From a virus (lineage: Duplodnaviria > Heunggongvirae > Uroviricota > Caudoviricetes), in the IMG/VR virus record IMGVR_UViG_2648501839_000008: DNA of 64,000 nt; one strand, given 5' to 3'. Positions 1,301-54,001 of the stretch are shown in pieces. The notes under the pieces were generated by a model. That model made no database searches, was not told where the DNA came from, and saw only the letters and a list, made by a program, of their open reading frames with translations. The number at the start of each line of letters is the position of its first letter. Within the stretch, counting starts at the first letter, position 1. Made by a program: the position numbers and the translations under genes.

Positions 1301-1531
1301 TCATTGTGATTGATTATTTTCTCGACCATGTAGTTGAACATTCAAGGCAAACACCTCATTGATCAACTCACCTAAAAGCTGTTCAACAAGTTCGCGATGC
1401 TCGCCAAGATGCAAGCACTTAATTGCCCACTCGTACAAGTTGAAAGCCTGCTCACGATCTTTCATCATTTCACGAGCCTGGGCCAGAAAATCGCTCTCTA
1501 CGAGCGCAACGACATTAGTCGGGTATGACAT
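1301..1531 (-). CDS. Hypothetical small protein
   Basis: ORF 1301..1555; preferred start ATG 1531-1529 is preceded by CCACTTTAAGGAAACCAAC, a variant of the conserved initiation box seen at other genes here. Confidence 0.45.
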   Translation of the reverse strand: MSYPTNVVALVESDFLAQAREMMKDREQAFNLYEWAIKCLHLGEHRELVEQLLGELINEVFALNVQLHGRENNQSQ

Positions 1532-1637
1532 GTTGGTTTCCTTAAAGTGGTTCATAAAATCGATTTTAAAGCGTCTGGGAAGGGGGTCTAGTGGATTCTG
1601 TAGTGATGTTCAGGTCTGGGAGTCTCTGATACAAAAC

Positions 1638-5632: not shown

Positions 5633-6042
5633 TTGCTCACCTCATAGATGACCGGTCTATGATGAGAGTCAGCTAAAGCGGCACGGAGTCGAGGATCGTG
5701 CACCAGCGCAGCGATAAGCAGATCGCCTTTATGCTCCGCTAATGTGCGCTTAATATGCTTCTCATAACTGGTGCCATTCGGTACGAGATGAAGCCAGTCG
5801 TAATCAACGCCAAAATCTTTCAGCCATCGTTTAGTGGGCGCTTCAAGAGTTTCAGAGCGGCTACTGATAAGCACCACTTCAGCCCCTGAGCGAGCAAAAC
5901 CACGCAACATACGGCTGGTGGGGAAAATGAGTTCATCACCGGCAATGAGCTGGCCTGCATCCGCGTCAGATACAGATTTACGATGGCTGGTATTTGCCAG
6001 CACACCTTCAATTTCGCATAAGACATACATACCTCTTGCCAT
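5629..6042 (-). CDS. Hypothetical protein, possibly HAD-like hydrolase
   Basis: ORF 5629..6090; start trimmed to ATG 6042 so it does not overlap the thyA stop. Weak HAD-like pattern (EIEGVL, VVLISSR); function call is tentative. Confidence 0.4.
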   Translation of the reverse strand: MARGMYVLCEIEGVLANTSHRKSVSDADAGQLIAGDELIFPTSRMLRGFARSGAEVVLISSRSETLEAPTKRWLKDFGVDYDWLHLVPNGTSYEKHIKRTLAEHKGDLLIAALVHDPRLRAALADSHHRPVIYEVSK

Positions 6043-8265: not shown

Positions 8266-9408
8266 TTACAGGTCAGCAAACTGGCTTAGAGAAGCCTTAT
8301 CCACGGTAGAATCGATCTGACCTACCAGATATGTGCTTTGCTCTGCCTCTTGTGGTGCAATTTGCAGTGTGTCGGTTAACAACCACTTGTTCATCCAGAC
8401 CAGCGGATCGGTGGTAACCTCTGGAAATAAAGCCTTCAGGCCAAGACGATTCATAGCCAGATTGGTGCGGTATTTTACATAGGTTTTGAGAATATCCGCG
8501 TTTAAACCAATCATCGAACCGTCTTTGAAGAGATAGTCTGCCCAGTTCATTTCTTGTTCGGCGACTGATTTCATGGTGTCGTAAATGACGTTTTCTTCAT
8601 CAGCAGCAATCTCTTTCCACAATAAACCTTCGCGACCGGTACGCATGAAGCGGAGCATGCGTTCAGTTCCTTCGCAATGCAGAGCTTCATCACGGGCAAT
8701 AAAGCGCATAATTTTGGTGTTACCCTCAAGCAACTTCCGTTCGCCAAAGGCAAACGTACATGCAAAACTTACATAGAAACGGATCGCCTCAAGCGCATTA
8801 ATGGACACCAACGTGCGGAAAAGCTGACGGTGCAAAGGGTATGGCTCCCAGCCATATTCATTTACGTACAGACGTTCAAACTCCTTCTGACCTAACGACT
8901 GGCGCTCGCAGGTCATCCCATAAAGCCTGTCATATTCAGCAGAGATACTGATCGCTCGGTTGATGATTTCTTCATCCGTAACAATACCGTCAAAAACAAT
9001 GCTCGGATCGTCCACCATGCCACGAATAATGTGGGTGTAGCTGCGGCTATGGATAGTCTCAGAGAAAGACCATGTTTCAACCCACGTTTCCAGTTCAGGA
9101 ATAGAGATAAGCGGCAGCAACGTTGCATTTGGGCTACGTCCCTGAACTGAATCGAGTAACGTTTGATAACGGAGATTGCTCAGAAAAATGTGACGTTCGT
9201 GGTCCCGCAGCTTCGTGTTGAAGTCGATACGATCGCTCGAAATATCAACTTCTTCCGGCCGCCAGAAGAAAGACAATTGACGTTCAATCAACTTTTCAAA
9301 ATCACGGTATTTTTGCTGATCGTAACGTGCCACGTTGACAGATTGTCCGAGGAACATAGGCTCTTTGGTTGCATCATTAGCACCCAAACGGAACGTTGAA
9401 TATGACAT
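8266..9408 (-). CDS. nrdB: Ribonucleotide reductase class Ia small subunit
   Basis: Near-colinear with E. coli NrdB from MSYSTF onward ([44 protein letters not shown]). Start ATG 9408 is preceded by AAGGAAAAACAC; the ORF-track start at 9444 is rejected. Confidence 0.95.
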
Positions 9409-9513
9409 GTGTTTTTCCTTTTGCTTTTTGATGTGTTTAAACAAGTTGTTATCTTATTTGTTTAAACAAGGCTTACAAATCAAAGAGAAGGTGGGGATAT
9501 ACCCCACCATATG

Positions 9514-11829
9514 TCAGATTTTGCAGGCTCCGTCGCACTCATCTTCTGGCTCGACGGCTACAGCTTGCGTAAGTGGATTCTTCGGTTCGTCGTCATCACG
9601 CTTTCCTGCCCCATCTCTGGTGTTGTGGTAGTAAAGCGTTTTAACTCCCATCTTGTAGGCGAGAAGCAAATCTGACAGTAGCGTCATCATTGGGACTTTA
9701 TCGCCTTCAAAGCGAGAAGGGTCATAGTTGGTATTGGCTGAAATAGCCTGGTCAAAGAACTTCTGGATGATCGCCACCTTTGTCAGATAGCCGCGGTTGT
9801 CCGGCATATTCCACAGGTATTCATACTGCTCCTTCAGTTTTTCAAACTCAGGCACGACCATCTTAACGATGCCGTCCTTAGAAGATTTCACCGACACCGG
9901 TCCACGAGGCGGTTCGATGCCGTTGGTGGAATTAGTGATCTGGCTGGAAGTCTCGCATGGCATTTGTGCCGTCAGTGTGGAGTTGCGAAGGCCGTATTTT
10001 GCAATACGCTCACGCAGTTCTTCCCACGGCATCTTTAACTCAAAGTTGGTTTCGCCGCTTTCGTCTAATGAAGAACGGTAATGGTCGATCGGCAACTGAC
10101 CAATTGCGTATTTGGTCTGCTCAAACCAGTCACACTCACCTTTTGCTTCGGCAAGTCGGCAGCTGGCGTCAAGAAGGTAATACTGGACAGCTTCGAACGT
10201 TTCATGCACCAGTTTATTGCCAGCGGTATCAGAATAACGAACGCCATTCTTTGCCAGGTAATAAGCAAAGTTGGTTACACCGATTCCCAGGCTACGACGA
10301 GCTTTGGCTGGCACTTCGGCTGCCTCCATCGGATAGTCTTGATAATCCAGTAACGAATCCAGTGCAGCAACGGCATAGAATGCCACCTCTTTAAGAGACT
10401 CCAGTGAACGAATGGCTCCGAGGTTAAAAGCGGATAAAGTGCACAGCGCGATCTCACCGTTCGGGTCGTCGGTAAATGTCAGTGGACGAGTAGGTAAAGT
10501 GATCTCCATACACAGGTTTGACTGGCGGACAGGTGCAAGAGCAGGAATGAAAGCGCCATGCTCATTAATATGATCGACGTTCGCAATATAAATTCGGCCC
10601 GTGGACGCTCGTTCCTGCATCAGAGATGAGAACAGCTCAATGGCAGGTACTGACTTCTTGCGAATTGAATCATCGGCTTCGTATTTATGGTACAGCTTTT
10701 CAAACAGATCCTGGTCTGTGAAGAAGGCTTCGTACATATCAGGCACATCATGCGGGCTGAACAGAGTGATGTTCTCGCTTCTGACGAGTCGACGGTACAT
10801 CAGACGGTTACTCATGACGCCGTAATCAAGATGGCGAACGCGGTTTTCATCGATACCACGGTTATTTTTCACCACCAGCAGACTTTCAACTTCAAGATGC
10901 CAAATCGGGTAAAACGCTGTTGCTGCGCCACCACGGACACCACCTTGCGAGCAAGATTTAACAGCAGTCTGGAAATGCTTCAGGAATGGAATAACTCCGG
11001 TATGGGTGGCTTCACCATTGCGGATCTCGCTGCCAAGCGCACGGATACGGCCAAAACCAATACCAATTCCAGCACGACGTGAAACGTAGTCGATAATTGC
11101 GGCTGAAGCTGCACTAATACCTTTCAGACTATCGCCAGACTCAATCAGCACACAACTGGAGAACTGACGGGTTGGAGTACGGACGCCGGCCATGATTGGT
11201 GTGGGCAGAGACAGTTTGAACGTACTTGTAATGTCATAGAAACCTTTGACCATCTCCATACGTGTTTTGCCCGCGCAGTCGTCTTCCCAATTCTGGAACA
11301 GACACATGCCAACCAGCATATAGATATGTTGCGGACCTTCGTGAATCTCACCAGTAACACGGTTTTGTACGAGATATTTGCTTTGCAGCTGCACCGTAGC
11401 CGCATAGCCAAAAAGATCGTCACGTTTAGGCTTAATGTAATTGCCGAGTTCTTCGATCTCTTCAAACGAATAATGTGTCAGCAAATCCTTGTCATAAACG
11501 CCCTTGTTAACGTTCTTGACAATGTGTTGGTAGAAGTTCGGATAGTCGTAACGACCGAAGGCATCTTTGCGGATTTTAAAAATGTTCAGGCGGGCAGCCA
11601 CCTGTGAGTAATTTGGTGCTTCCGGTGAGATCAAATCAGCGGCAGATTTAACCAAAGCCTCATGCAACTGGCTGGTGGTCATCCCATCAAAAATGCTGGC
11701 CGCAGCTCCCATTGCTACAGCGGATGCGCTTACGCCACGAATGCCTTCTACGCCATACATTACGACGCGGTTGTATTTTTCTTCGGATAACGGCTCTGTT
11801 TGGCCGTTACGTTTTACGATGCTTATCAT
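9514..11829 (-). CDS. nrdA: Ribonucleotide reductase class Ia large subunit
   Basis: 771 aa, colinear with E. coli NrdA (YLVQNRVTGEI, PTPIM.GVRTPTRQFSSCVLIE, SNLC.EI, ends GACKI). No intein or intron interruption seen. Confidence 0.95.
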   Translation of the reverse strand: MISIVKRNGQTEPLSEEKYNRVVMYGVEGIRGVSASAVAMGAAASIFDGMTTSQLHEALVKSAADLISPEAPNYSQVAARLNIFKIRKDAFGRYDYPNFYQHIVKNVNKGVYDKDLLTHYSFEEIEELGNYIKPKRDDLFGYAATVQLQSKYLVQNRVTGEIHEGPQHIYMLVGMCLFQNWEDDCAGKTRMEMVKGFYDITSTFKLSLPTPIMAGVRTPTRQFSSCVLIESGDSLKGISAASAAIIDYVSRRAGIGIGFGRIRALGSEIRNGEATHTGVIPFLKHFQTAVKSCSQGGVRGGAATAFYPIWHLEVESLLVVKNNRGIDENRVRHLDYGVMSNRLMYRRLVRSENITLFSPHDVPDMYEAFFTDQDLFEKLYHKYEADDSIRKKSVPAIELFSSLMQERASTGRIYIANVDHINEHGAFIPALAPVRQSNLCMEITLPTRPLTFTDDPNGEIALCTLSAFNLGAIRSLESLKEVAFYAVAALDSLLDYQDYPMEAAEVPAKARRSLGIGVTNFAYYLAKNGVRYSDTAGNKLVHETFEAVQYYLLDASCRLAEAKGECDWFEQTKYAIGQLPIDHYRSSLDESGETNFELKMPWEELRERIAKYGLRNSTLTAQMPCETSSQITNSTNGIEPPRGPVSVKSSKDGIVKMVVPEFEKLKEQYEYLWNMPDNRGYLTKVAIIQKFFDQAISANTNYDPSRFEGDKVPMMTLLSDLLLAYKMGVKTLYYHNTRDGAGKRDDDEPKNPLTQAVAVEPEDECDGACKI

Positions 11830-11846
11830 GTATCACCAAATAAAGA

Positions 11847-11868
11847 GGGCCACTAAATATAGTGGCCC
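11847..11868. other. Perfect 8-bp-stem hairpin in the nrdA 5' leader
   Basis: GGGCCACT-AAATAT-AGTGGCCC palindrome between a palindromic box (11878-11895) and the nrdA start. Confidence 0.4.
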
Positions 11869-12481: not shown

Positions 12482-13225
12482 TTACCATGTTCCCCATATA
12501 GGGTTTTCCAATAATCTCGCCTCCAACGAATTGGCTACTATTGCCGTTTGCAACGTTGGTTGGGGATAGTTTGCAAAGTCTGAATACTCATTTACCTGCG
12601 TGACACGTTTATCTACAGCATGTTTAACGCCACTTGCTATGAAATGACGCATGATGCCCAACAGCCTCCGACTGTCTGCACTATCGTTTGCTAAAACATG
12701 AGGGAGCTGAAGTTCGATTTCTACCATTTCTCCATACTTACCAACAAACTGTAGTTTGTCCGCACTGTACTTTTTATCCCTCCTTTGGATAAGGAAACCA
12801 GTAAAAGCATCACCTGGCGATGCCAAACTATCCACCCGCTTATTGGCAAGTCGAATAAGGTTCGTGAAAGCCATACAGAGATGCGCATCCATTGCCCCAA
12901 AGAACCCTTCGCTATTAATGTTAAGATCTTCAGTTTCATGGGATGCAATAAACCCAGGCCCGACGTTGGGAAGATATCCCCCCTCAACAAAAGGATTAAT
13001 CAGGATCGGCGCAATACATCCAGGTGGTAGTGATTTCAAACTTTGCATCAATGGTGTCTCGGATATTAGACCAAGCAACGGGGCGAATTGTGCTTTGTCA
13101 ATATTATTGCTGCCCCACAGAATACGTGGAGCCGCACCATTGGAAGTATGCCCATTGATCAGTTTTATCGACTGCATCACCGCAAACACCTGCAAAAACT
13201 GCGAGCGGCTTAATTTAAACGACAT
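12482..13225 (-). CDS. Hypothetical protein
   Basis: 247-aa ORF between the SbcC-like and RuvC-like genes. Confidence 0.6.
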   Translation of the reverse strand: MSFKLSRSQFLQVFAVMQSIKLINGHTSNGAAPRILWGSNNIDKAQFAPLLGLISETPLMQSLKSLPPGCIAPILINPFVEGGYLPNVGPGFIASHETEDLNINSEGFFGAMDAHLCMAFTNLIRLANKRVDSLASPGDAFTGFLIQRRDKKYSADKLQFVGKYGEMVEIELQLPHVLANDSADSRRLLGIMRHFIASGVKHAVDKRVTQVNEYSDFANYPQPTLQTAIVANSLEARLLENPIWGTW

Positions 13226-15131
13226 AGCTGCGCCCCTCTTTAACTTCCAGAGTAATAGTTTCGCGGAACCATGACTTCATCTCTTTATGGGAGATAATCA
13301 GCACAGTGCCCCGTTCGCGAGCTTTGGACTCCAGAATACCCATGAGGCGTTCAAGACCGGCTGTATCGAGTGCATCGTCAATTTCGTCGCCGATAAACAA
13401 ATCGATGTTTTTACTCGCCCGGTTACTGACCAGATCTTGCAATGCCAAAGAACACGCAATGCGAACCTTCCGCTTCTCACCACCAGAGAGGGTCTGGAAC
13501 GACTTACTTGAACCTTTCTTCTGCACACTAATGTTGAATTTGTCGCGATACTCACCTTTTTTAGTGACATCCATCGTCGACCACTCAGCAGTAATATTCC
13601 CGTCAGACAACGTATTGAGATACTCGGCTGTGCGTGTATTCAGGAAAGGCGTAACAGAGGTCAAAATATGAGAACGCACCCCGGCAGGAGAGTAGACCTG
13701 ACGAGCTTTTTCCAATAGCAACGTTTGTTCCTGAATAGCCTTCAACTCATCTTTTAAGGACTTGAAGGTAGACTTACTGGATACCAGGTTATCTTCGTGT
13801 CTGGCGATAAGAGCAATAAACGGATTAATCTCTTTTGATATACGATCGACCTCAGTACGAGCACGAGTAACAAGAGACTCAATAGCAACAACCTCCTTCT
13901 CACGATGACGCAAAGATGAGAGTTGTTTAGTAAGTTCTTCAATCCGGGCAATGATAGCCGTTACATCAGGTGTCGTTTTAACAAGGGCAGACTCAATGCT
14001 TAACGCCTTCTCAAGATTCGTTTTGTGTTTAGCCATTGCCTCTGCAAGTGTCTTCGCCTGACCAATTTCCTGACGTGCTTGTTCAATGAAATTCTCCTTC
14101 ACCGTTGATAGATCTTCTTCGCAGTAGGCTTTGCCACAAGTAGGGCATGGTGATCCTACTTTAGTACCAACCTCTTCTGCTTTGGTCTTAAAATTGCGCG
14201 CGCGGCTCATTGCATCAGCCTGACTATTTTCTGTAGCTTTGATGCTTGCCCGAATATCAGTTATCGCACCACGCACTTTGAGCAACTTGGCGTCATGTTC
14301 TTCTTTTGAGGCTAACTTTTTGCGCTCACTTTCGATTGCCTTCTCGGTATCACGGATCTGTTCGGGAAGAGTGCGGATCTCAAGTTCAACTTCCGTTAAC
14401 TCAACTTCGGCACTTGCCAGCCCGGCCAGGGCATCGTCATAACGTTTAGAACGCTCTTGTTCCCATGATTCAGAGGAGGCTTTCGCGGACTCAATTTCTG
14501 ACTGTGTTGCCTCAATGGTCGAGATTGTCGACTCCAATTTGGTTTTAACCACGTCCATACGTGCGGCAGCTGCGTTAGCTCGTTCACGAGCAATAGCGTA
14601 GGCGCGTGTCAGTCTGTCAACGCCAGCGGCTTCTTCTACGATGGTTTTGAGGTTTTTGTCGGACATTCCAGGTAGATCTGGCATAGCTTCTTGGCTTGCA
14701 TAGATGGAAGCCATGAAAACCTCTTTAGATGCACCGATCAGACGTTCGACGAACTCTTGCGTCAGCGCATCTTTGCCTTTCGTCATATCGCCGTCTTCAC
14801 CACGAACGATAAGCCGATTTTTGAACTCTTTGTGTTTACGGTGACGAATGATCGCATATCTCTTGCCTTCATCCTCGATGGTTACTGCAACACGACAGTT
14901 CTTTTCATGGTCGGTAGACAACACATCGTCACCATTCACACCATGAGCTGTTTCGCCATAAAGACACCACATCAGGCTATTCATTAGCGTTGACTTTCCA
15001 GAGCCATTACTTGATGCGGAGCTATCATCACTATTAACACCCTGAATGAGCACTAAACCACGCTGCTCTAACTCGACCTCCGCGCTGGCGATAGCCATAA
15101 AATTCTCAACCTGGAGCTTTAAAAACTTCAT
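13215..15131 (-). CDS. sbcC: SbcC/Rad50-like recombination ATPase
   Basis: N-terminal Walker A (GSGKSTLMNSLMWCLYG), long central coiled coil with CPTCG zinc hook, C-terminal LSGGEKR signature and D-loop. Confidence 0.85.
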   Translation of the reverse strand: MKFLKLQVENFMAIASAEVELEQRGLVLIQGVNSDDSSASSNGSGKSTLMNSLMWCLYGETAHGVNGDDVLSTDHEKNCRVAVTIEDEGKRYAIIRHRKHKEFKNRLIVRGEDGDMTKGKDALTQEFVERLIGASKEVFMASIYASQEAMPDLPGMSDKNLKTIVEEAAGVDRLTRAYAIARERANAAAARMDVVKTKLESTISTIEATQSEIESAKASSESWEQERSKRYDDALAGLASAEVELTEVELEIRTLPEQIRDTEKAIESERKKLASKEEHDAKLLKVRGAITDIRASIKATENSQADAMSRARNFKTKAEEVGTKVGSPCPTCGKAYCEEDLSTVKENFIEQARQEIGQAKTLAEAMAKHKTNLEKALSIESALVKTTPDVTAIIARIEELTKQLSSLRHREKEVVAIESLVTRARTEVDRISKEINPFIALIARHEDNLVSSKSTFKSLKDELKAIQEQTLLLEKARQVYSPAGVRSHILTSVTPFLNTRTAEYLNTLSDGNITAEWSTMDVTKKGEYRDKFNISVQKKGSSKSFQTLSGGEKRKVRIACSLALQDLVSNRASKNIDLFIGDEIDDALDTAGLERLMGILESKARERGTVLIISHKEMKSWFRETITLEVKEGRSYVV

Positions 15132-15360
15132 ATAACACCTTTGATACCGTGTGTTAGCTTTTGACCTTCTTTCAATCTGAACTCCGTATGCGCCGGGAAG
15201 GATCTGCGCCTCAATATGCCTTTTCTGGTTAACCTTCCAAGATAAAACGCTACGGGATTTCCTTGTGGCGGGTAGGGCTTGTGAAACATCACCGTCTGGC
15301 CTCGTTCAAGTCTTTTCATCGTGATGGCAAAGTCTCGAAAGCTCCCATAACGACTTTGCC

Positions 15361-16446
15361 TCACACAGCCTCCGAACTCTCCGCTTCGGTGAGGATTTCC
15401 TGACACAAAATATCCAACTTGCTCAGATCAAATCCGCCGTCAGTATCGTGGACAATCTTGCAATAAGCGGATACCGACTCTCCCAAGCTATCGATTTTGC
15501 TGGTTTCCGTTGTGCTTGCTGTCCCTTCCATCATTGATGACTTACGGATGAAGTTGCACACGACACCTTTTGCACCCATTGTTTTGAGGATGTTCTGGTA
15601 CTTAATGCCTTCTTCATCGTTCTCAATTACGGCGCGGAAACGCACGTAGTTGCCGCGAATTTGGTCATCGGCAACATAATCTTCCAGGTTAATGAATTTA
15701 GGCGCACTGGTTTCGTAGTGACTGAAACTGCCGTCCGGGTTTACGATCATGTAACCAGCCAGAGATCCAACATCTCCCCAATTTTGATGGGTCAGCGCAC
15801 CGACACTGATAACTCCAGGAATGACCTCTTTGTGGTTGTGGTAATGCCCACTAAGCACGAGACGAAAGCCGATATCCTTTAACTCCTGCGCATCGATACC
15901 GACGTCAGGCATTGTTGGAATGGCTTTGTTAATGGATGTATGGATAACAACGTCATGATTATCACCTTCTACGATCTTACGTAATGCTTTCAGATCGCTG
16001 ATAAGCTCTGCATGATTGTTACGCCAGCTAATCAGGTGGACAGTCACATCACCAATTTTTATTGAATGTGGGCGCTTGCCACATACGATTACCACGCCGA
16101 TAGAACTCAGCGATGCTGCTGCGTTGGCGCTATATACTGAATCGTTGGTTTCAAGATCGTGATTACCGGCCAGCATTACTACTGTCAGATCAAGCTCGTT
16201 GATAATCCACTTGTACGTTTCAGTTACGTAATGCAAAACAGAAGGGGACACAGTCCCTCGGACGTGAAATGTATCACCGGCAACCAACATGTACTTACAA
16301 CCGGCCTTCTTCATGGCGATGGCTGCTTCTTTCGTTGCTTCCAACTGTATTTCAAGTCTGGAGTTAAGCCCCTCAGCGTTCGTCGTGGAGAACGCATCCC
16401 ATTTGTGGTAGTGGCAGTCAGAAATGACGCCGTATGGCAAAGTCAT
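15361..16446 (-). CDS. sbcD: SbcD/Mre11-like nuclease (calcineurin-like phosphoesterase)
   Basis: ISDCHYH, VAGDTFH and LAGNHDLE metallophosphatase motifs; conserved initiation box directly upstream of ATG 16446. Confidence 0.85.
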   Translation of the reverse strand: MTLPYGVISDCHYHKWDAFSTTNAEGLNSRLEIQLEATKEAAIAMKKAGCKYMLVAGDTFHVRGTVSPSVLHYVTETYKWIINELDLTVVMLAGNHDLETNDSVYSANAAASLSSIGVVIVCGKRPHSIKIGDVTVHLISWRNNHAELISDLKALRKIVEGDNHDVVIHTSINKAIPTMPDVGIDAQELKDIGFRLVLSGHYHNHKEVIPGVISVGALTHQNWGDVGSLAGYMIVNPDGSFSHYETSAPKFINLEDYVADDQIRGNYVRFRAVIENDEEGIKYQNILKTMGAKGVVCNFIRKSSMMEGTASTTETSKIDSLGESVSAYCKIVHDTDGGFDLSKLDILCQEILTEAESSEAV

Positions 16447-16661
16447 GTGTTTTTCCTTTGTGGTTATTTTGATACAAATTTTAAGAGCAATGAGAAGGTA
16501 AACAACTATGCATAACGGTATGTTAGGAATGAAACGAGCGACTTAATATACAAAATTTATAAGTAAGTATATACCTATTTATTGTGACGCAACTTTGCTT
16601 GTCTGTATGACTAAAAATAAGACAGGATCACTGTAGAACGCTATGAGAGCTATTTTGAGGA

Positions 16662-20103: not shown

Positions 20104-20379
20104 TCACTCAAAAGTGCTGATGCTTAAAATACGCTCAAGATGTGCGGCATCTTCATCACTGATTTGTTGAGTCTCTTCTACGTACCAACAGTTGCCGTTA
20201 TGCCAACAAACACCATCATCATCAACCATCACTGAATCAGCGTCATGACCTGTATATTCAACGAGAATACGCTGGATCAGTGCGTCAGTTTCTTCGTCGT
20301 TAAGGCCATCGGCTTTGACCATAAAAAGCGGAAACACGTCATAGACAGTGCTGGTAACGATTCGAACTAAAACTCTCAT
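20104..20379 (-). CDS. Hypothetical protein
   Basis: 91-aa acidic ORF with the conserved initiation box upstream of ATG 20379. Confidence 0.55.
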   Translation of the reverse strand: MRVLVRIVTSTVYDVFPLFMVKADGLNDEETDALIQRILVEYTGHDADSVMVDDDGVCWHNGNCWYVEETQQISDEDAAHLERILSISTFE

Positions 20380-20434
20380 GTGTTTTTCCTTTTGTGGTTA
20401 ATGTTTACTTATTTTGTTAGTTATGAATAGGCGA

Positions 20435-20860: not shown

Positions 20861-20916
20861 ATTTTCTTAACCCTTTAAACAAATTGTTTTCTTAATAAGA
20901 TAATTGCGATAAAAAA

Positions 20917-21785: not shown

Positions 21786-21986
21786 TTATTTCCCCTTTGC
21801 TTTGATTAATGAGTTGATAAACTTACGACCAGCAATAAGACCGATTACAGGAGCACCAAAACCAACGATAACTCCAAACATGACGGCTAAATCACTCTTG
21901 GTAGAAATCAGCGACGGAACCAGTAAACCGTAGATGAGAGCCACTGAAAGGCCTGTGGCTACTGCCAATAGATAGATTTTGATCAT
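21786..21986 (-). CDS. Small membrane protein, possible NfeD-like partner of the SPFH protein
   Basis: 66 aa, two predicted TM helices, directly upstream of the SPFH gene; conserved initiation box upstream. Confidence 0.55.
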   Translation of the reverse strand: MIKIYLLAVATGLSVALIYGLLVPSLISTKSDLAVMFGVIVGFGAPVIGLIAGRKFINSLIKAKGK

Positions 21987-22053
21987 GTGTTTTCCTATGT
22001 GGTTGTTATGCGAAAATAATAAGTAAGTACTTATATATTTTCAAGAGATAAAA

Positions 22054-22078: not shown

Positions 22079-23152
22079 TTACTCTTCTACTGACTCGGTG
22101 GGGTTGTCTTTTGCTCTTCGGTCGTCGATTGCCTGCAAAGCCGCAATGATTTCAGCCAGTGGCTTCTCCCGATACATCTCGACGATCTGCGATTTGGTGT
22201 ATTTCTTGTCACCAATTTCAACTCGCCCGCTGGCGTTCTTTGGCAGGTATCCTTCTTCCAGCATGTACTCGACGAGCGATTCGATAACGTCGAGGCCACG
22301 AGTAGGATCGAAGTAGAATTTCCAGGTGCATTTGCCATACGGTGGTGCAACTTTGTTTTTGATGCATTCTGCGCCTACGTCCTGGCCGATCTTCTCTTTA
22401 CCATCCTTCATCACCGATGCACCAAGACGGATACGTACAGAAGCGTAGAACTTCGGTGAATCTCCACCTGGCGACGTAGTAGGGTCGCCAAACATTACAC
22501 CGATTTTTGTGCGAACCTGATTCAAGAAGATGATGCAGGCGTTGTATTTGCGTGCCCACAAAGCCAGAGTAGGGAAGTTCGCACTTGTCGCACGAGCCAG
22601 TGCCGTATTGTCGTTCATGTTTAGCTGATCTTTGTCTTTGGCAGTGCCTTCAGCCATCTTTTCGAACTTCTCGGCTTTGGAGTTCGGAACCATAGACGCA
22701 AGTGAGTCAGCCACGATACAGATAGGTGCTGATTCAGGGATAAGCTCTTCATCACGTACCAATTTAAGTATTGTGCCGATCAACTCTACAGAGTCTTCGA
22801 AGGTGTCAGGCTGCTTGTATACCCACTGACCGTCATCCTCATCTGCGTTCAGGCCATTGGCTACAGCCAGGCCAACGTCAAAACTGTTTTCATGATCGAG
22901 GAATACCGCCAGACCATCTTGTTTTTGAGCGGAGATCATCGCTGCTGTTGCAAGGAACGTTTTCCCTGCACTTGGAGGACCGAATACTTCGACGATACGA
23001 CCACATGGGAAGCCGCCATCGTAACGACCAGAAATAGCTTTGTTTAACGGTGGAAAGCCTGTATCAATCCAATGAGTTACTTTCTGAATTTCGTCGTTGC
23101 TACCGATTTTCTTTTTCAGAGCAAGTGCCAGTGCGGATTTTCCTTTTGCCAT
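22079..23152 (-). CDS. RecA/UvsX-like recombinase
   Basis: Walker A GPPSAGKT in a RecA-fold context (GFPCGRIVEVFGPPSAGKTFLA); AAGGAG RBS. Confidence 0.8.
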   Translation of the reverse strand: MAKGKSALALALKKKIGSNDEIQKVTHWIDTGFPPLNKAISGRYDGGFPCGRIVEVFGPPSAGKTFLATAAMISAQKQDGLAVFLDHENSFDVGLAVANGLNADEDDGQWVYKQPDTFEDSVELIGTILKLVRDEELIPESAPICIVADSLASMVPNSKAEKFEKMAEGTAKDKDQLNMNDNTALARATSANFPTLALWARKYNACIIFLNQVRTKIGVMFGDPTTSPGGDSPKFYASVRIRLGASVMKDGKEKIGQDVGAECIKNKVAPPYGKCTWKFYFDPTRGLDVIESLVEYMLEEGYLPKNASGRVEIGDKKYTKSQIVEMYREKPLAEIIAALQAIDDRRAKDNPTESVEE

Positions 23153-24425: not shown

Positions 24426-25454
24426 TTACAGAGAGTCCAGCTCTCTCAGTAGGTCATCCAGACCTTCATCTTCCGTCGCAGATGCGGTTGCTACAGATGT
24501 CGCTGCGACTGCTTCAGACTCTTTGACTGATACGGCAACGGCAGCGGAACTTGCCTCTGGTTTAAATTCAGTTTCAACGGCACGGAGGATTTCTTCATCA
24601 ACCAGACTGGTTGGTTCAGAAGCCGGTGTGTGCGCGGTTGCTACAGCCGTCGCTCCTTCTGTATGACCAGTGACAGAGCCAAATCCAGGTAGTGCCGCAG
24701 CCGATGTTTTCGCGGTTGAGGAAATTGCTGGTGCAGATGCTGCGGCAGTTGGTGCAGCGATGCCAATCAGACGACCCATAGTGCGAACTGTCGACAGAAG
24801 ACGAGTTTCATCAGCCTGATTTGCGTATGCGATCAGATCATGCTGGGTGTTCCAGAATTTATCTTCGATATCGCCTTTGTAGACTTTACGCTTAGGCGAG
24901 ACGTCATATTTGGTATCGCGACCAGAGCCAGTACGTTTAATCAGGAATGCGTAGCCTTCCTCTTTGCTCAGTGGATTGCCGATATCATCAGCGATGTCTT
25001 CGGTGATTGCTTTGCAGATATCATCGAATACAGTAGACGGCAGCTCGATTAACTGGCATTTCTCAGCATCTGCGAAATCCTCACGAGCAGAAAGAATGCC
25101 GTTGACCAGGTAGCGAGGAGTGGCACGCATTTGACCGATGCGTTCTTCCATTGCTTTGTTACCCTTGTGACGAGCGCGACCTTCCATCACCATTTCGCAT
25201 AGCTGACAAGCGCGACCGTGAGTATGTTGCTCACAAATATAAGCGTTGGTTGCTTCTTTACCTTCCTCGTTCTGATACTTAACGTAGTGCATACCGAAAG
25301 TCTGGAAGAACTTACCGTTTGGGTCGTCTTTATTCGGGAAGATGCGGATATAGTTGACGCCGTCTTTTAAACGAGTCAGATCAACGTTGTTGCCACGTTT
25401 GGCGGCAATGTCTTCACGAGTTTTGTTAAGCAAATCAAGTAATGTCTTAGACAT
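24426..25454 (-). CDS. Single-stranded DNA-binding protein (T4 gp32-like)
   Basis: Cys/His zinc-binding pattern (CEQHTHGRACQLC), Ala/Ser-rich linker and acidic C-terminal tail (EDEGLDDLLRELDSL). Confidence 0.65.
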   Translation of the reverse strand: MSKTLLDLLNKTREDIAAKRGNNVDLTRLKDGVNYIRIFPNKDDPNGKFFQTFGMHYVKYQNEEGKEATNAYICEQHTHGRACQLCEMVMEGRARHKGNKAMEERIGQMRATPRYLVNGILSAREDFADAEKCQLIELPSTVFDDICKAITEDIADDIGNPLSKEEGYAFLIKRTGSGRDTKYDVSPKRKVYKGDIEDKFWNTQHDLIAYANQADETRLLSTVRTMGRLIGIAAPTAAASAPAISSTAKTSAAALPGFGSVTGHTEGATAVATAHTPASEPTSLVDEEILRAVETEFKPEASSAAVAVSVKESEAVAATSVATASATEDEGLDDLLRELDSL

Positions 25455-25571
25455 GTGTTTCTCCTTGTTGTGATTTGGCCGATGGCGCTATGCGCGTTGG
25501 GCTTTCGTTCATTCGTGGCTCTTTCGAGCTGTTAAATGATAGATCAGTACTTACTTATTATCTATCAAAAA

Positions 25572-26003
25572 TCAACGGGGAGTAATAAAGCGTTCAGAGC
25601 CTAATCGCTCTAATTCAACGATAGCCATCTTCGACGCCTGAACGATCATGTCTCGGCGATGCGAAAAGGCGGCGACAGCATGTTTGTATATGTCTGCGAT
25701 GTGCCGTGCTTCATCCAACTTCTGCCGTTTAGACAGATACTGTGGGTTTGTTTTAACCTTAGCGTCTAGTACAGATTCGTTAAACTTAATGCCGTTCATA
25801 CTCAAGTTTTTACGCTCTGTGTCGTATAGCTTTGCTTCAACAGCTTCAAGGTTAAGTTTTGCCTCTGCGACACTTCTTTCTGCATGGGCGAGCTTTGAAC
25901 CATACTCCATCAACAGGCGAGGTTGTTTACGCCAGACGTCTTCCAGATTGTCTCTGTCAAACTCGAGATCAGACATTATTTTCTCGTAAATATCGGTGTT
26001 CAT
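25572..26003 (-). CDS. Hypothetical coiled-coil protein
   Basis: 143-aa ORF. Confidence 0.55.
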   Translation of the reverse strand: MNTDIYEKIMSDLEFDRDNLEDVWRKQPRLLMEYGSKLAHAERSVAEAKLNLEAVEAKLYDTERKNLSMNGIKFNESVLDAKVKTNPQYLSKRQKLDEARHIADIYKHAVAAFSHRRDMIVQASKMAIVELERLGSERFITPR

Positions 26004-26146
26004 ATTGATATGCTCAAACTTACTTTCGTGTATCTGATTATATCAAACAAATAGAGCTTTACTGTCATGATTGGCGGTAGACAGTATCGGCGCTAAGGTG
26101 CAGAATCAGGAGGCACACCGAGCAAAGCAAATTGAGAATAAAACCA

Positions 26147-27130
26147 ATGGATAAGGCTAACAAACAAGTCAAAGCAACAAAGTCAGTGCCGACTAAAAAA
26201 ACAGCCCTCCCCCCAAAAGCTAAGTCTGTAAAGCCAGCGGCAGAAAAGAATAAAACTGAAGGTATGACATATCCGAAAACCAGTGCGGATGGACACGCTG
26301 GAGAGTACTTGTTTGCCTATTGGATTTCTCGTTATTTCAGATGGCCTTGTCGATTGCTAGATATTGATATGGGATTGGATGCTCAGGTTGAAATATATGA
26401 AAATAATCTTTCGACAGGTTTTTTTATCGGCGTTCAGATAAAAACCACCTCACGCAAAATGAAGAGAAGGTTAAGCGTACAAATACCTTATAAAAATATA
26501 ACCTATTGGGGAAGTTGTGATTTTCCTGTGGTAATTGTTTTGATATGCCTACACGATGATAATGAATTAGACGAACCTGCTATTTATTGGAAGCATTTAG
26601 ATAAAAAAACAATTTCTAAAATAAAGGATAAAGCATTAAGAAGTGACTCTGGATGTGCTCCTGTAACTTTCAATAAGGATGATTATCTGTCTGAATGGGC
26701 AGACAAACAAAAGTGGGTCGACATGTGGCTTACAGAAGAAGATAAAGAGATAATTGAGCTTGCAAAGCGAGTAAACAAGACGTTGCTAGAGATAGGTGTT
26801 CCTCTTGATAAATTCGGAGACGAGTATGACCGCAGCACCTACCTGTGTAGCCCTGAGCGGGTAGTACCAGACTTGAACTCTATGATGAATGAATATGAAA
26901 AAATAAATAACCATATACGTGTAAAGCGTCGATTAGTAGAATTCGATCCTGTAGTGTCGATTTGTTCACAAAATTATGAAAAGTATCTACCTAAAATCCT
27001 TGAATATTTTGAAGATGTGGTCGCACGTAGTGTCGGTTCATACTCGATTGCAGAACATTTCGAACCATACAGTGATCGTAATCATATTCTGAATCGAATA
27101 ATTATAGAGAAAGCCCCTAATTCAAGATAG
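26147..27130 (+). CDS. DUF4365-like (Mrr-like PD-(D/E)xK fold) protein with uncharacterised C-terminal domain
   Basis: Plus-strand, AT-rich gene in a minus-strand backbone. GHAGEYLFAYWISRY..DIDMGLDAQVEI..GVQIKT matches the DUF4365 signature as recalled. First ATG is 26147; the track start 26132 is TTG. Confidence 0.6.
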   Translation: MDKANKQVKATKSVPTKKTALPPKAKSVKPAAEKNKTEGMTYPKTSADGHAGEYLFAYWISRYFRWPCRLLDIDMGLDAQVEIYENNLSTGFFIGVQIKTTSRKMKRRLSVQIPYKNITYWGSCDFPVVIVLICLHDDNELDEPAIYWKHLDKKTISKIKDKALRSDSGCAPVTFNKDDYLSEWADKQKWVDMWLTEEDKEIIELAKRVNKTLLEIGVPLDKFGDEYDRSTYLCSPERVVPDLNSMMNEYEKINNHIRVKRRLVEFDPVVSICSQNYEKYLPKILEYFEDVVARSVGSYSIAEHFEPYSDRNHILNRIIIEKAPNSR

Positions 27131-30300: not shown

Positions 30301-30822
30301 GTTGTCTTTTCCACCCGCTGTAATCAGTGAGCTTATGATTTTTGCAAAATCGTTGCGTTGGAACACGCTACCGATGTCGGCAGTGAGCAGGATGATGTTG
30401 CCTTTGGCATATGTAGAAACCAACTGTTCGAGCGAGAGACGCGGTACAAAGTAGAACTGTTCTCGTGTGTTGGCCGCCGTCATTAGTTCGCAGATGTCTC
30501 GATATCCCTGCTCATTTTTAATTAGAGCGGTAAAGGAGTAGTTCCGCCCACGCTCTAATGATTCCATACATCCCATAGACTCTTTAGCAAGTTTAGCCCG
30601 GTGCTCGTATGTGGGATCATCAACAATGTTTAGTTTCACACCACAAATAACCGCCATGTCGTCACCAGCGGCACGTTGTAGTGGAATAACACTCGCAATA
30701 TTCATGCTATCTGCCGAAATTACAGCGGTGTAGCCAGCTTCTCTGGCAATCTTCACCGCGTTTTCTGCTTTTAGAGCCGACTCCCCAAGAGAGAAGTCAG
30801 TTCGAACCATCAGAGCCTTCAT
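27304..30822 (-). CDS. dnaE: DNA polymerase III alpha subunit (DnaE-type)
   Basis: 1172 aa; GPGRGSSAGSLVAWCIGIT, LLFERFINPERLDLPDADLDF and other blocks colinear with bacterial DnaE. Confidence 0.95.
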   Translation of the reverse strand: MKALMVRTDFSLGESALKAENAVKIAREAGYTAVISADSMNIASVIPLQRAAGDDMAVICGVKLNIVDDPTYEHRAKLAKESMGCMESLERGRNYSFTALIKNEQGYRDICELMTAANTREQFYFVPRLSLEQLVSTYAKGNIILLTADIGSVFQRNDFAKIISSLITAGGKDNFYSVVYPHPTPFYDQINVRAMKVASALKIEPVAFYPAYYESIDDADIKDIAHMVTNNIKIDQPHRLRIPHQRDNAVNGRRHLLEALKAFSVRMDVPVTAAMASTTQDTIIDACTWRWHELPPALPKMADDEPATLMKLAVAGLRKRLTTKEFGYTPPASENRVYVERLKYEMDTLTRLGFCGYFLMVRDLMNHSRETGIPVGPGRGSSAGSLVAWCIGITNVDPIRHGLLFERFINPERLDLPDADLDFSQARRHEVIEYLNERYGEDYVAGIPNFTYLGAASALRDTARIYGVESADMAVSKELKNVEDDSLPLEELREQLASLDKYATKYPDAFNAACKLQSLMRGYGRHAAGMIVAGVPLTERTPVERRGDARCIAFDKRYCEAMGLIKLDVLGLATLDLLDSAKRYIKENTGEDINLDAISLEDRKVLDGFAAGYTQGVFQLESGPMRKLLKDLGGGIEPMSFKTVVATTALFRPGPIQSGMLDDYVSVAKGFMTPESLHPVLDELTAETNGVILYQEQTMNATRLLAGFTMAEADGVRKAIGKKDMEKMKSMGEKFIVQAQAGWIDVELEDGTTQRIHRAEHFKCEDGTLKTVEEALEHGAKLPINAVRVTASHPGLSEMKAKEIWTAFEKNGAYQFNKSHSVAYSLISYQSMWLKTHYPAEFFAAALTILGEDKHQGLVKDALTYGIRVLPPDVNVSSNRIEIRTLEDGSQVLYAPFSAVKGCSENGCQAIMRAREKVGGKFESLAQFEEAVEKRACNSRVRESLQKVGAFASIEPGSLPATDPERLRDQAELMGNLVIDAVKASRPFEMNPKRSAEINVLMTRMAAEMGLGDELIRPSIGIKPKIMIILDNANGNDARTGYFMENGYDDFKAKLLTAGDLRMGDLYVTGVCKKVKDKEKDYTKDEIGQFTDFMREEINLVRPTYVLTCGSRATSLFNNKSKPSDLVGRKEYLPELDVTVFYGFNPNILYFRLEEGEKLEAILAEVAETISK

Positions 30823-31000
30823 GTGTTTTTACCTTTCTGGTTTTTTTGATTTTGTCATTGGGGAAGCCTACGAACTTCCCATACATCGAAATCGCAACTT
30901 CTTTTGCTGATTGGTGACAATCGGGCTTGTCTGGACACACCAGGCAAGCCTTGCCAGTTTCAGAAGCAGCGATAAGAGAGCCGAAACATCCTTTACGCAC
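30797..31000 (-). CDS. Small Cys-rich hypothetical protein
   Basis: 67-aa ORF with four Cys (possible zinc ribbon), overlapping the dnaE start. Confidence 0.4.
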   Translation of the reverse strand: MRKGCFGSLIAASETGKACLVCPDKPDCHQSAKEVAISMYGKFVGFPNDKIKKTRKVKTHEGSDGSN

Positions 31001-31002
31001 GA

Positions 31003-32238
31003 TTAACCAAATATTTTTTGAACAACTTCACGTGCCGCTTGCGCAGAAGCTGAAGGGAGTTTGTTAATGAAAGAACGCTCAATACCTGTCACAAAGTCGC
31101 CTCGCATCATTCCAATCTTGGCCGACAACAAAAGTTCACGAGGGCCAATCGGCTGACTGATCAGGTGTTCTTCGTATCCATCGCGAACGATACCGGCAAA
31201 CTTAACCATCTTTTCAGCGTATTCATCCACGATGCCAGCATTTATCAACATGCTGATCTCTGCCTCTTTGCTCATGTATTTCACATTCGAAACGATGCCA
31301 AAACGCGAAAAGTTAGCGGCGTTCTGGATGTTTGTACCCTGGTACAAGCCGGTTTCATCACCAGATCCGTTCGTGTTGCCAGTGCCAATGAAAGCAAACC
31401 GTTCATGCGGAGTAATGCGACGCCATTCTGGAGTCGCCTCTTTGATGACCAACGCTTCACCTTCCAGCACTGGCTGATACACGCCAAGAATCTGTGGAAA
31501 CGCAAAGTCGTATTCATCCGCGAGGTAAACCCAGCCATGCTTCATTGCGAGCGCAAGCAAGCCAGGCTCGAAATACGTAGAGCCATCACGCGCCAGAATT
31601 TGTCCCGTAACATGAGCCTCTTCCATTGATGCTGTATGTTGGGCACGGATTAACGGACGATTGAGCAAAGCACATAGTTGTGTAGGCAATGAAGATTTGC
31701 CTGTTCCTGCATGACCCCACAAATAGCCTGGTATGCCAAGTTCAAGCATCATGAAAATGTCTTTGATCAGTTCGAAGTCGCCATATACGTATCCCTTCTT
31801 CACTTCTGGAACGAACTCTGGAAACGGCGTATTGACGTTGACGCTAACCATGAGCGGCGTCCCACGTTTTGTTCCGAGTTCTTTCACCGTTACATTTAGC
31901 AGTTCGTGAGCTGCGACCAGATCTGTCTTGTACTCAACTGTGCCTGTATAGCCTGGGCTATTGGTCACGCCAGATGATTTGGCCATTTCGCTTTTTTGCT
32001 CGGCACGTTTAGCTTGAATTGCATCAAGTGCCTTTTTCGATAGCGTTGGCTCATCTGGAAACTGCGTTGTGTACATTTTCAGTACGGTGTCAGGATCGGC
32101 ATCTTTTACTGACTCAGGAATGCCCTCGCAATTACCATTGGCTACATGGGACTTAAAATAGTGAAATGATTTTCCGCACCACTTGCAAACAAGGTAATCA
32201 GAAGGATTTTTTTCATTTTGCAGTGCAGTAGTAGTCAT
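31003..32238 (-). CDS. AAA+ ATPase, MoxR/CbbQ-like (phage CobS-like)
   Basis: Walker A LWGHAGTGKSS with an N-terminal Cys cluster; paired with a downstream vWA protein. Confidence 0.8.
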   Translation of the reverse strand: MTTTALQNEKNPSDYLVCKWCGKSFHYFKSHVANGNCEGIPESVKDADPDTVLKMYTTQFPDEPTLSKKALDAIQAKRAEQKSEMAKSSGVTNSPGYTGTVEYKTDLVAAHELLNVTVKELGTKRGTPLMVSVNVNTPFPEFVPEVKKGYVYGDFELIKDIFMMLELGIPGYLWGHAGTGKSSLPTQLCALLNRPLIRAQHTASMEEAHVTGQILARDGSTYFEPGLLALAMKHGWVYLADEYDFAFPQILGVYQPVLEGEALVIKEATPEWRRITPHERFAFIGTGNTNGSGDETGLYQGTNIQNAANFSRFGIVSNVKYMSKEAEISMLINAGIVDEYAEKMVKFAGIVRDGYEEHLISQPIGPRELLLSAKIGMMRGDFVTGIERSFINKLPSASAQAAREVVQKIFG

Positions 32239-32333
32239 GCGTTTTTCCTTTGTTTTCTAATGAGCTTTCAACTTCTTATATAAATATACCATCAAATATC
32301 GTAAGTGATTACTTATCATTAAGGCTATTCTAA

Positions 32334-34442: not shown

Positions 34443-34540
34443 GGCTAATCCTTTGTTATGAAAACAAATTATTTACTAGTGTGTTTAATGTAGCACTGCG
34501 CGAACAGGGAACTAAGCCATTCGCGCAGGTAGAAGAGGGA

Positions 34541-35004: not shown

Positions 35005-35391
35005 ATGTCTGACAACAAGATTGAATTTATAGAAAGTCGCTACGCTGCTTTTATCGCAGGGTTGATTGAATCCTCACCTATGAGCCAGGCCCAGATAGCC
35101 AAAACAATTGGGTATAAAAACGCCAACAACCTTTCTTTAATTAAAAGCGGCAAAATTCCTTTGCCTATCGATAAGGTTCGTCCGCTGGCGCTGGCACTGG
35201 GTATTGAGCCAAGTCGTCTTATGATGATGGTGCTGGAAGAACGCCAACCCGAACTCGCAGCATTTTTATACAAAGAAGGCACTGCTCCTCTTAACGAGGA
35301 CGAAAAACAGGTTCTTGCTGCATATAACGAGCGATTCGGTAAAGAGAAAGGCGCATCACAAAAGGTTGTTGAGGCCATAAAGTCTCTATGA
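35005..35391 (+). CDS. HTH XRE-family DNA-binding protein
   Basis: SQAQIAKTIGYKNANNLSLIKSGK helix-turn-helix; convergent with and slightly overlapping the tyrosine recombinase gene. Confidence 0.7.
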   Translation: MSDNKIEFIESRYAAFIAGLIESSPMSQAQIAKTIGYKNANNLSLIKSGKIPLPIDKVRPLALALGIEPSRLMMMVLEERQPELAAFLYKEGTAPLNEDEKQVLAAYNERFGKEKGASQKVVEAIKSL

Positions 35392-38981: not shown

Positions 38982-39057
38982 TGGTGCCGGTTAACGGACT
39001 TGAACCGCTGGCCATTCGCTTACAAAACGACTGCTCTACCAACTGAGCTAAACCGGC
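38982..39057 (-). tRNA. tRNA-Thr (anticodon UGU), tentative
   Basis: Reverse complement GCCGGTTTAGCTCAGTTGGTAGAGC...GGTTCAAGTCC...AACCGGCACCA; anticodon loop UUUGUAA, with one mismatch in the anticodon stem. Confidence 0.55.
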
Positions 39058-39061
39058 AATT

Positions 39062-39148
39062 TGGTGGGGAGTGATGGAGTCGAACCACCCGAGTCGCCAT
39101 GACAGTAGATTTACAGTCTACACCGCTACCTCTACGGACTAACTCCCC
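39062..39148 (-). tRNA. tRNA-Tyr (anticodon GUA), type II
   Basis: Reverse complement GGGGAGT...GTAGACTGTAAATCTAC...GGTTCGACTCC...ACTCCCCACCA. Confidence 0.6.
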
Positions 39149-39153
39149 TAAAT

Positions 39154-39228
39154 TGGCGATGGTGGGTGGATTCGAACCACCGACCAGTTGGTTAACAGCC
39201 AACTGCTCTACCGCTGAGCTACACCATC
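39154..39228 (-). tRNA. tRNA-Asn (anticodon GUU)
   Basis: Reverse complement GATGGTGTAGCTCAGCGGTAGAGC..GTTGGCTGTTAACCAAC..GGTTCGAATCC..CACCATCGCCA. Confidence 0.65.
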
Positions 39229-49942: not shown

Positions 49943-49956
49943 TCCTTTAATTCATA

Positions 49957-49982
49957 TATTGGGCGTAACAAACGCCCAATAT
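49957..49982. terminator. Hairpin between the par operon and the KAP NTPase gene
   Basis: ATATTGGGCG-TAACAAA-CGCCCAATAT inverted repeat. Confidence 0.5.
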
Positions 49983-49984
49983 AA

Positions 49985-53932: not shown

Positions 53933-54001
53933 GAAAAGTCAAATCGGGATGGCGGATTTATATCACATTTCACCTTCTTGTTGTAGGTGTGTACTTACTT
54001 A

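Follow-up and report, generated by a model that had tools for sequence, protein, structure and literature searches.

Start-associated sequences (SAS/ESAS) are short repeats described in the cluster K mycobacteriophages, with no function yet known for them in 2025 (Pope et al. 2011, PMC3203893; 188-genome survey, PMC12699233). They are the closest described analogue, by analogy and not by homology, of the element treated here, an A/C-rich conserved sequence (…ACAAAGGAAAAACAC), referred to below as the box, which spans the ribosome-binding site up to the ATG of early and replication genes in a 64,000-nt stretch of Caudoviricetes DNA (IMG/VR record IMGVR_UViG_2648501839_000008; "the window" denotes this whole stretch). 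The two are alike in being short and asymmetric, in numbering ~10-19 copies per genome in a single orientation directly upstream of starts, in being confined to the non-structural arm, where they precede unrelated gene families, and in including the Shine-Dalgarno (SD) core while being conserved also where 16S rRNA cannot pair. Inverted repeats lie upstream of about half of the SAS; here the inverted-repeat element palA is found ahead of 4 of 11 boxes, but also on genes without a box. The SAS differ in sequence (GGGATAGGAGCCC, GC-rich with symmetric ends, unrelated to the A/C-rich AAAGGAAAAACAC of the box), in placement (3-7 bp from the start, whereas the box is contiguous with the ATG and is best conserved in its spacer) and in host phylum and phage lineage, the present hosts being Enterobacteriaceae.

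Three further systems invite comparison. In the Felix O1-like Citrobacter phage Mordin a 26-bp repeat lies upstream of 8 genes and was likened by its authors to the SAS (PMC4611695). Like the box, it is found in an enterobacterial phage before the starts of several early-arm genes; its sequence (CCAACAATCCTAAACTGGAGAATCTA) and phage family are different, and it was reported in a genome announcement without conservation analysis. ACA/CA-rich enhancers are present in the yifK, dppA and gltI leaders, where they are silenced by GcvB; in Salmonella yifK and dppA, ACA motifs beside the SD sequence raise translation up to 100-fold, and the enhancer keeps working when repositioned (PMC3879156). These leaders share with the box an SD sequence flanked by ACA, an A/C-rich unstructured leader and the host clade, and the sequence-specific effect of the enhancer, with G as the worst substitution, is counted as a further likeness; their positions are variable, whereas the register of the box is fixed to the AUG. 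In phage T4, RegA exerts coordinate post-transcriptional control of a gene class through AU-rich sites (AAAAUUGUUAUGUAA in SELEX). RegA operators resemble the box in that a single short motif recurs over the SD-AUG region in many mRNAs of early, replication and nucleotide-metabolism genes, in a phage whose replication module is of T4 type; the differences are that the ~60 hypothetical proteins scanned here included no RegA homologue and that the box is A/C-rich rather than AU-rich. A search of the literature on SSU5-like elements returned no description of the box motif.

The window comes from an SSU5-like phage-plasmid of Escherichia coli, with 97-98% identity to Escherichia phage Cyrano and plasmid pUTAK-6-1 and 77-80% identity to Salmonella phage SSU5; nearly all of its genes are on the minus strand. 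Plasmid pUTAK-6-1, complete and annotated by the Prokaryotic Genome Annotation Pipeline (PGAP; 111,466 bp, 118 coding sequences), served as an independent source of start codons and is referred to as the full relative. Lineages were compared using ~160 related IMG/VR loci, centred on the CobS-like and SbcD-like genes, together with the SSU5 record.

Placement and conservation of the box

From the comparisons given in this section, the box is a real, selected, class-specific and sequence-specific feature; selection clearly maintains it, and its role is probably in translation. The original prediction had listed ten start codons preceded by a near-identical sequence (1531, 9408, 16446, 20379, 21986, 25454, 30822, 32238, 45849 and 47271), and all ten are present on the minus strand, each after the sequence described. 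A position matrix for the box (positions -19 to -1, ATG excluded) was scanned over both strands of the window (128,000 positions). The top nine matches (16.9-24.4 bits) were at 9408, 20379, 16446, 45849, 47271, 25454, 32238, 21986 and 30822, all on the gene strand and each directly before the ATG of an open reading frame (ORF) of 66-1172 aa; matches below 16 bits were at chance level and lay away from starts. The proposed set of about ten genes holds for these nine sites and not for 1531, a weak relative that scores within the noise (10.3 bits). The 15-mer AAGGAAAAACACATG occurs in 3 exact copies and, allowing up to 2 mismatches, in 7 copies against 0.30 expected, all on the minus strand and all at starts. 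A shared block is thus present, at less than the almost invariant 18-20 nt first proposed: the common block is ~12-13 nt (AAAGGAAAAACAC, positions -13 to -1). The upstream part AACCAC is common to 4-5 sites only, and the longer block AACCACA(A/T)AGGAAAA(A)CAC is likewise present at 4-5 sites.

Strong copies of the box were found neither away from starts nor on the other strand, contrary to what would be seen if it occurred equally at non-start positions. The motif A[AG]CACATG has 34 sense copies across nine lineages, of which 33 open an ORF of at least 50 aa, and 1 antisense copy (0.64 expected per strand per locus). Nine strong copies are present in the 64 kb and 11-12 in the full 111-kb relative. 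The box also proved useful for calling starts, as had been suggested, with 9 of 10 sites matching PGAP starts in the 98%-identical pUTAK-6-1. Because the register to the ATG never shifts while the distance to promoter-like elements ranges roughly from 23 to 85 nt, and because strandedness is strict, the box is taken to function at the RNA level. These properties also bear on a reading at the DNA level, in which the box is a promoter element, an operator or an AACCACA like the DnaA box and adjoins starts by chance. The palindromes palA and palB do lie in the same intergenic regions, and AACCACA loosely resembles the DnaA box, TTATCCACA; but a DNA-level site accords poorly with an exact ATG register, a single strand and a variable distance to promoter-like elements, the box is not palindromic, AACCAC is its least conserved part, and a sigma-70 scan of 9-28 kb predicted a promoter upstream of 1 of 5 box sites (21986). 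Such a site is the least probable of the explanations considered.

Conservation exceeds what SD pairing needs, as predicted, and is not limited to the SD hexamer; the excess is mainly in the ATG-adjoining spacer (AAACAC). By direct comparison with the known rRNA sequence, pairing with the 16S 3' end (...CCUCCUUA) involves AAGGA only, and predicted SD strength is equal in box and non-box genes. Each spacer position from -7 to -1 contributes 0.67-1.68 bits in box genes, on a par with the SD core, and ~0.1 in the other 107 genes, and CAC occupies -3 to -1 at 11 of 118 starts versus 1.55 expected (P = 5e-7). For 7 box genes, compared over lineages that reach down to ~45-60% identity of the N-terminal protein sequence, alignment columns of the spacer averaged 0.07-0.56 bits of entropy. 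Those of the leader at -25 to -13 in these genes averaged 0.4-1.3, and third codon positions mostly lay at 0.6-1.3, the gp32-like gene being lower at 0.13. In 10 control genes the spacer had an entropy of 0.39-1.26, as variable as the neutral proxies. Among gene-weighted orthologues, positions -5 to -1 read AACAC in 67%, and of the 32 possible A/C-only pentamers no more than 3 occurred; departures from AACAC mostly involve one transition, and nearly all of them retain ACA beside the AUG. Position -2 is A in 95% of orthologues and position -1 is C in 96%. The predicted energy for opening the region from -15 to +10 was 3.8 kcal/mol for box genes and 7.7 for the others (P = 1e-5). Judged from these alignments, the constraint is on the sequence itself, beyond A/C content or openness.

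The triplet ACA is found at -2 in 20 genes and at -4 in 8 genes, where 1.8 would be expected, and is enriched also at -14 to -17; the ACA that runs into the AUG (-2 to +1) is the most conserved feature of all. The endoribonuclease MazF cuts at ACA, and a proposal that it generates leaderless mRNAs through an ACA beside the AUG is contested. A box that acted as an RNA cleavage or processing signal would have its AUG-abutting ACA cut by a MazF-type endoribonuclease or another mRNA interferase, giving inactivated or leaderless mRNAs under stress. This is improbable: no nuclease partner is conserved with the box, and toxin-antitoxin cassettes vary among close relatives, although the SSU5-like element is induced by genotoxic stress (PMC9928086) and sequence cannot tell cleavage from binding.

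Individual sites keep their own quirks across lineages (GGT at dnaE, GAGAAAC at the gp32-like gene, AGCAC at dnaB), and identity is 11.0/13 between orthologous copies versus 10.3/13 between paralogous copies within a genome. Since orthologous identity at least equals paralogous identity and each site keeps its quirks, the copies are old and vertically inherited; concerted evolution or gene conversion was rejected on the same comparison of identities. A purely historical similarity, due to copying of a single promoter-leader cassette or to its spread through recombination where modules join, with the copies still undiverged, would fit the longer block common to 4-5 sites and the greater likeness of copies in the E. 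coli lineage than in SSU5 (10.3 vs 8.9 identities of 13). It is nevertheless very improbable, the quirks being kept across lineages at least 20% apart in DNA, the flanking leader having diverged where the spacer has not, and some orthologues being boxed in one lineage and not in another; historical copying is largely refuted already by the conservation profile. In the distant lineage L155, AAACAC-ATG is present on RecA, SbcC and NrdA, where the E. coli lineage is without it, and the UvsY-like gene and cobT are boxed in some lineages only and not in the E. coli lineage. The length of the A-run shifts by 1-2 nt among lineages.

In the full relative, a non-coding gap of 43 nt or more precedes each of the 11 box genes. 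The idea that free intergenic space is enough for a box was rejected, 66 gap-preceded genes being without one. Capsid, tail and other late genes have ordinary AAGGAG-type sites and no box.

Candidate functions and candidate readers

The explanation that we tentatively favour is that the box is a cis-acting, ACA-type, structure-free initiation module that enhances translation of the early/replication class. Such a module would act at the RNA level and would combine an SD of average strength (AAGGA) with an ACA(A) immediately before it and with the fixed spacer AAAACAC, which would set overlapping ACA triplets against the AUG (ACACAUG). Consisting of A and C only, save for the two G residues of the SD, the module would not fold on itself, so that the ribosome-binding site would stay open, and the ACA triplets would serve as sequence-specific enhancers of 30S binding, as in the yifK and dppA leaders. 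A higher initiation efficiency may then be the reason that early genes retain the box, for example in competition with host mRNAs right after induction. A cis enhancer of this kind accounts for the data at least as well as a repressor or processing site.

Several observations weigh against it. The register to the AUG is fixed here, unlike that of the position-tolerant published enhancer. The primase copy, whose SD is without GG, is perfectly conserved, so that something other than SD-assisted initiation is conserved there. Of the genes preceded by a non-coding gap, 11 of 38 within the early arm are boxed and 0 of 32 elsewhere (P = 6e-4), and this restriction to the early class counts against an enhancer because class restriction is what a regulatory operator predicts. 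A generic host optimum was also rejected, CAC at -3 to -1 being found at 0 of 56 starts of E. coli ribosomal-protein, EF-Tu/EF-G, rpoA and neighbouring genes.

These points lend themselves to a second reading, a plausible and serious rival though on the unlikely side, in which the SD-spacer-AUG block is a RegA-like operator through which a phage or host protein switches replication and nucleotide-metabolism mRNAs off or on together. As with RegA sites, the box overlaps the SD-AUG region in fixed register at 9 early/replication genes. An operator would be expected to be limited to the early arm, as the box is, and absent from late genes and from host genes of high expression; to have a fixed register that includes the AUG, under a constraint that is sequence-specific and not compositional; and to be conserved even in a copy without the SD core, as at the primase. 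The genes that are boxed differ by lineage yet are always within one module, and that module is T4-like: it comprises gp32, a RecA/UvsX-like recombinase, a weak match to a UvsY-like mediator, gp46/47-like SbcCD, NrdAB, thymidylate synthase (Td) and dihydrofolate reductase (Frd), together with the UvsW helicase, which is annotated in Cyrano at a position outside the window. In T4, this gene class constitutes the RegA regulon. Against an operator, the A-run varies by ±1-2 nt, which a ribosome tolerates easily and a rigid protein site less so. The search for an encoded RNA-binding repressor, proposed as a check in the original prediction, found neither RegA (PF01818) nor any classical RNA-binding domain by Pfam among ~60 hypothetical proteins of the window and pUTAK-6-1, a few proteins lying outside the scan. 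A RegA-like autoregulated small protein was rejected, the small box-gene products being acidic or membrane proteins, unlikely RNA binders, with no RNA-binding domains by Pfam.

RNA regulators were considered as well. A phage-encoded antisense RNA was rejected: intergenic matches to the anti-box are the opposite strand of the boxes themselves, and no trans copy was found. Pairing with GcvB gained no specific support; R1 duplex energies over the 118 leaders were marginally lower for box leaders (P = 0.026) with many non-box leaders better, and GcvB matches box leaders over 7 nt at most (AAACACA/UGUGUUU).

Plausible readers of an operator would be the gp32-like single-strand DNA-binding protein (SSB), an FljA-family protein or an unrecognised protein. 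Translational repression has precedent in the families of the first two, but none of the sequence tests connected either of them with the box. T4 gp32 autoregulates by repressing only its own mRNA, with binding nucleated at a pseudoknot and specificity arising from lack of structure. By analogy, the gp32-like SSB is a candidate trans-acting binder of unstructured leaders. Its gene is itself boxed, and the leader (to ~25545) contains two hairpins with invariant stems and variable loops, without covariation support, followed by ~27 unpaired A/C-rich nt to the AUG. The likeness to the autoregulatory leader of T4 gene 32 lies in the encoded gp32 homologue, in structured elements followed by an unpaired tract to the AUG, and in the box leaders being the least structured of this genome; the differences are that two plain hairpins are present here and that a nine-gene regulon would be new.

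The FljA-family protein ("repressor of phase-1 flagellin", PF03614, E = 1.5e-84, full-length, with a weak Hfq-like C-terminal match) is encoded outside the 64-kb window, at 83295-83819 of pUTAK-6-1 (33295-33819 of locus L002, +). Its gene is present in 12 of 12 SSU5-like phage records, six of them from Klebsiella, and in many related IMG/VR contigs. Klebsiella hosts are not known to have flagella or flagellin. Since the protein is kept even in the Klebsiella records, its mRNA target is suggested to lie in the phage itself, which would suit an operator. A sequence search of the PDB with the FljA-like protein found no solved structure. Salmonella FljA binds the 5' untranslated region of fliC and blocks its translation (PMC2652032). 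The present system is like FljA-fliC in that every SSU5-like relative has a family member and in that the FljA target adjoins the ribosome-binding site AAGGAAAA (sequence verified). It is different in that the gene is outside the window and is not among the lysogeny-expressed genes reported for Cyrano, and in that the likeness of the fliC leader to box and palA is at chance level. For this comparison the Salmonella/Citrobacter fliC leader (…CAAGTTGTAATTGATAAGGAAAAGATC-ATG, sequence verified) was used. By the box matrix it scored 14.1 bits, below every true box and the same as neighbouring fliD, and E. coli fliC scored -2.3; by the palA matrix its top match was elsewhere and the target was missed; and local alignment to the whole plasmid gave a score of 30 versus 24-32 for shuffles, so that its likeness to the leader at 86701 of pUTAK-6-1 was not significant.

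A fuller version of the operator reading makes the box a post-transcriptional regulon, in which the replisome mRNAs (helicase, primase, polymerase, SSB, SbcD and ribonucleotide reductase) would share an AUG-abutting operator read by a trans-acting factor, and synthesis of the replisome would be switched jointly as the element passes between plasmid state and lytic growth. This is rather doubtful; within it, the FljA-family protein and a gp32-like SSB under titration by single-stranded DNA would be the most attractive candidates.

Site coordinates and neighbouring features

Coordinates of the boxes, of the palindromes and of the gp32-like gene are collected in Table 1. The box of the SbcD-like gene is kept in 83 related loci. 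In the phrog_2209 gene, CAC at -3 to -1 is retained in 89% of unique orthologous upstream sequences, down to ~45% protein identity, and in the gene for the 66-aa membrane protein it is kept in 100% of orthologous variants; the latter has a sigma-70-like promoter (22044-22016) close upstream. The box of the CobS-like ATPase has an A-run that is polymorphic in length among lineages, in a flanking leader that has diverged. At the DnaB-like helicase the block AAAGGAAAGCACATG is unchanged in SSU5.

Table 1. Positions of boxes and associated features in the 64,000-nt window; scores are from the box matrix.
Feature	Position	Strand	Remarks
Box and ATG of nrdB (AAAGCAAAAGGAAAAACAC-ATG)	9406-9427	-	24.4 bits; start is that of PGAP nrdB
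Box and ATG, SbcD-like metallophosphoesterase (AACCACAAAGGAAAAACAC-ATG), consensus copy	16444-16465	-	23.6 bits; exact 20-mer match
Box and ATG, 91-aa acidic protein (phrog_2209)	20377-20398	-	24.0 bits; protein pI 4.2
Box and ATG, 66-aa membrane protein (CAACCACATAGGAAAACAC-ATG)	21984-22005	-	18.3 bits
Box and ATG, gp32-like single-strand DNA-binding protein (TCACAACAAGGAGAAACAC-ATG)	25452-25473	-	20.2 bits
Box and ATG of dnaE (ACCAGAAAGGTAAAAACAC-ATG)	30820-30841	-	16.9 bits; variant GGT in all lineages
Box and ATG, CobS-like AAA ATPase (GAAAACAAAGGAAAAACGC-ATG)	32236-32257	-	20.1 bits
Box and ATG before primase (AACCACAAAAGAAAAACAC-ATG), SD without GG	45847-45868	-	22.0 bits
Box and ATG, DnaB-like helicase (AAAAAACAAAGGAAAGCAC-ATG)	47269-47290	-	20.6 bits; palA abuts at 47290-47306
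Weak box relative, 76-aa protein (CCACTTTAAGGAAACCAAC-ATG)	1529-1550	-	10.3 bits, chance range; cited in the original prediction
gp32-like SSB gene, 342 aa, annotated "hypothetical protein"	24426-25454	-	PF08804 gp32, E = 1.7e-66; box gene
palA (GATAACAACTTGTTTAA), inverted repeat upstream of some boxes	9437-9453, 20875-20891, 47290-47306, 51046-51062	-	5 strong window copies, with that on the plus strand
palA, as above	34460-34476	+	
palB palindrome (TAAGTAAGTACTTATATA)	111-128, 16560-16577, 22020-22037, 25540-25557, 39978-39995, 48070-48087, 53984-54001, 59351-59368		8 copies versus 0.03 expected

At the primase, identified by weak matches to DnaG and Toprim, the start is placed downstream of the box ATG at 45849 both by PGAP and in the SSU5 annotation, and the box region is identical to SSU5 over ~33 nt. 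In the window (45783-45868, -) the box ATG is in frame with the primase and gives a 22-codon N-terminal extension, and in SSU5 (5815-5910 of locus L084) it opens a 23-codon upstream ORF whose stop codon overlaps, in ATGA, the start annotated for the primase. The cause is either a wrong start annotation or coupling of primase translation to a leader peptide. A box-like sequence (ACAACAAAAGAAACAC-ATG, 42175-42193, -) lies within the 3' end of the gene upstream of DNA ligase; it resembles the GG-less primase box and opens a 19-codon ORF 37 nt ahead of the ligase start. Upstream of nrdA (11847-11868, -), a conserved hairpin (GGGCCACTATATTTAGTGGCCC, then a T-run) is present in all lineages and directly precedes a weak ribosome-binding site (GGTGATAC-ATG); the spacer of this gene is of the box type (GGGAAAACAC-ATG) in some distant lineages.

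The motif palA is a partly palindromic 17-mer (GAAAACAAnTTGTTTAA) with 7 matches in the window versus 1.5 expected. In the full relative there are at least 14 copies, all intergenic, in the sense orientation and 10-140 nt upstream of starts, many with a GATAAT-like -10 element ~13 nt upstream. The boxes that it precedes are those of nrdB, dnaB, a TerB-like protein and a 189-aa protein, and it is also found on genes without a box; the region upstream of nrdB contains two palA copies and a terminator hairpin. By analogy, palA looks like an operator at the starts of early transcripts, reminiscent of the inverted repeats of the cluster K ESAS. The second element, palB, is a palindrome of 18-20 bp (TAAGTAAGTACTTACTTA), one copy of which (22020) sits in the spacer of the sigma-70-like promoter that feeds box gene 21986. 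It is probably the operator of the element's helix-turn-helix repressor (window 35005-35391, +), the counterpart of the Cyrano "putative repressor" CYRAN_45.

T4-like content in the replication arm of the window was located at 25572-26003, 22079-23152, 13215-16446 and 8266-11829, all on the minus strand. In Rfam searches of the window only tRNAs reached the gathering threshold; three tRNA genes are clustered at 38985-39228 (-), and the pUTAK-6-1 annotation gives four (Ser, Thr, Tyr, Asn). The region 48001-50000 is a low-GC island (0.32 vs ~0.46 elsewhere) with an ORF (48239-49942, -) for a KAP-family P-loop NTPase, probably an acquired accessory or defence gene. Further variable cargo consists of a DUF4365 protein (26132-27130, +) and a Sel1-repeat protein (43639-44676, +).

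Significance for SSU5-like elements

In clinical E. coli, Salmonella and Klebsiella, SSU5-like phage-plasmids occur commonly and bring resistance genes with them; their gene regulation is essentially unstudied. The box marks a discrete, conserved class of early and replication genes and so offers a handle on control of the replisome; in practice it can be used for calling start codons, and it flags the leader ORF before the primase. Start-codon-associated repeats have been unexplained in phage genomes since 2011, and here they are found in a system in which reporter fusions, toeprinting and ribosome profiling are routine. Were the doubtful regulon reading true, the box would represent a RegA-like circuit assembled from unrelated parts and would provide the first functional explanation of start-associated sequences, in a tractable E. 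coli system.

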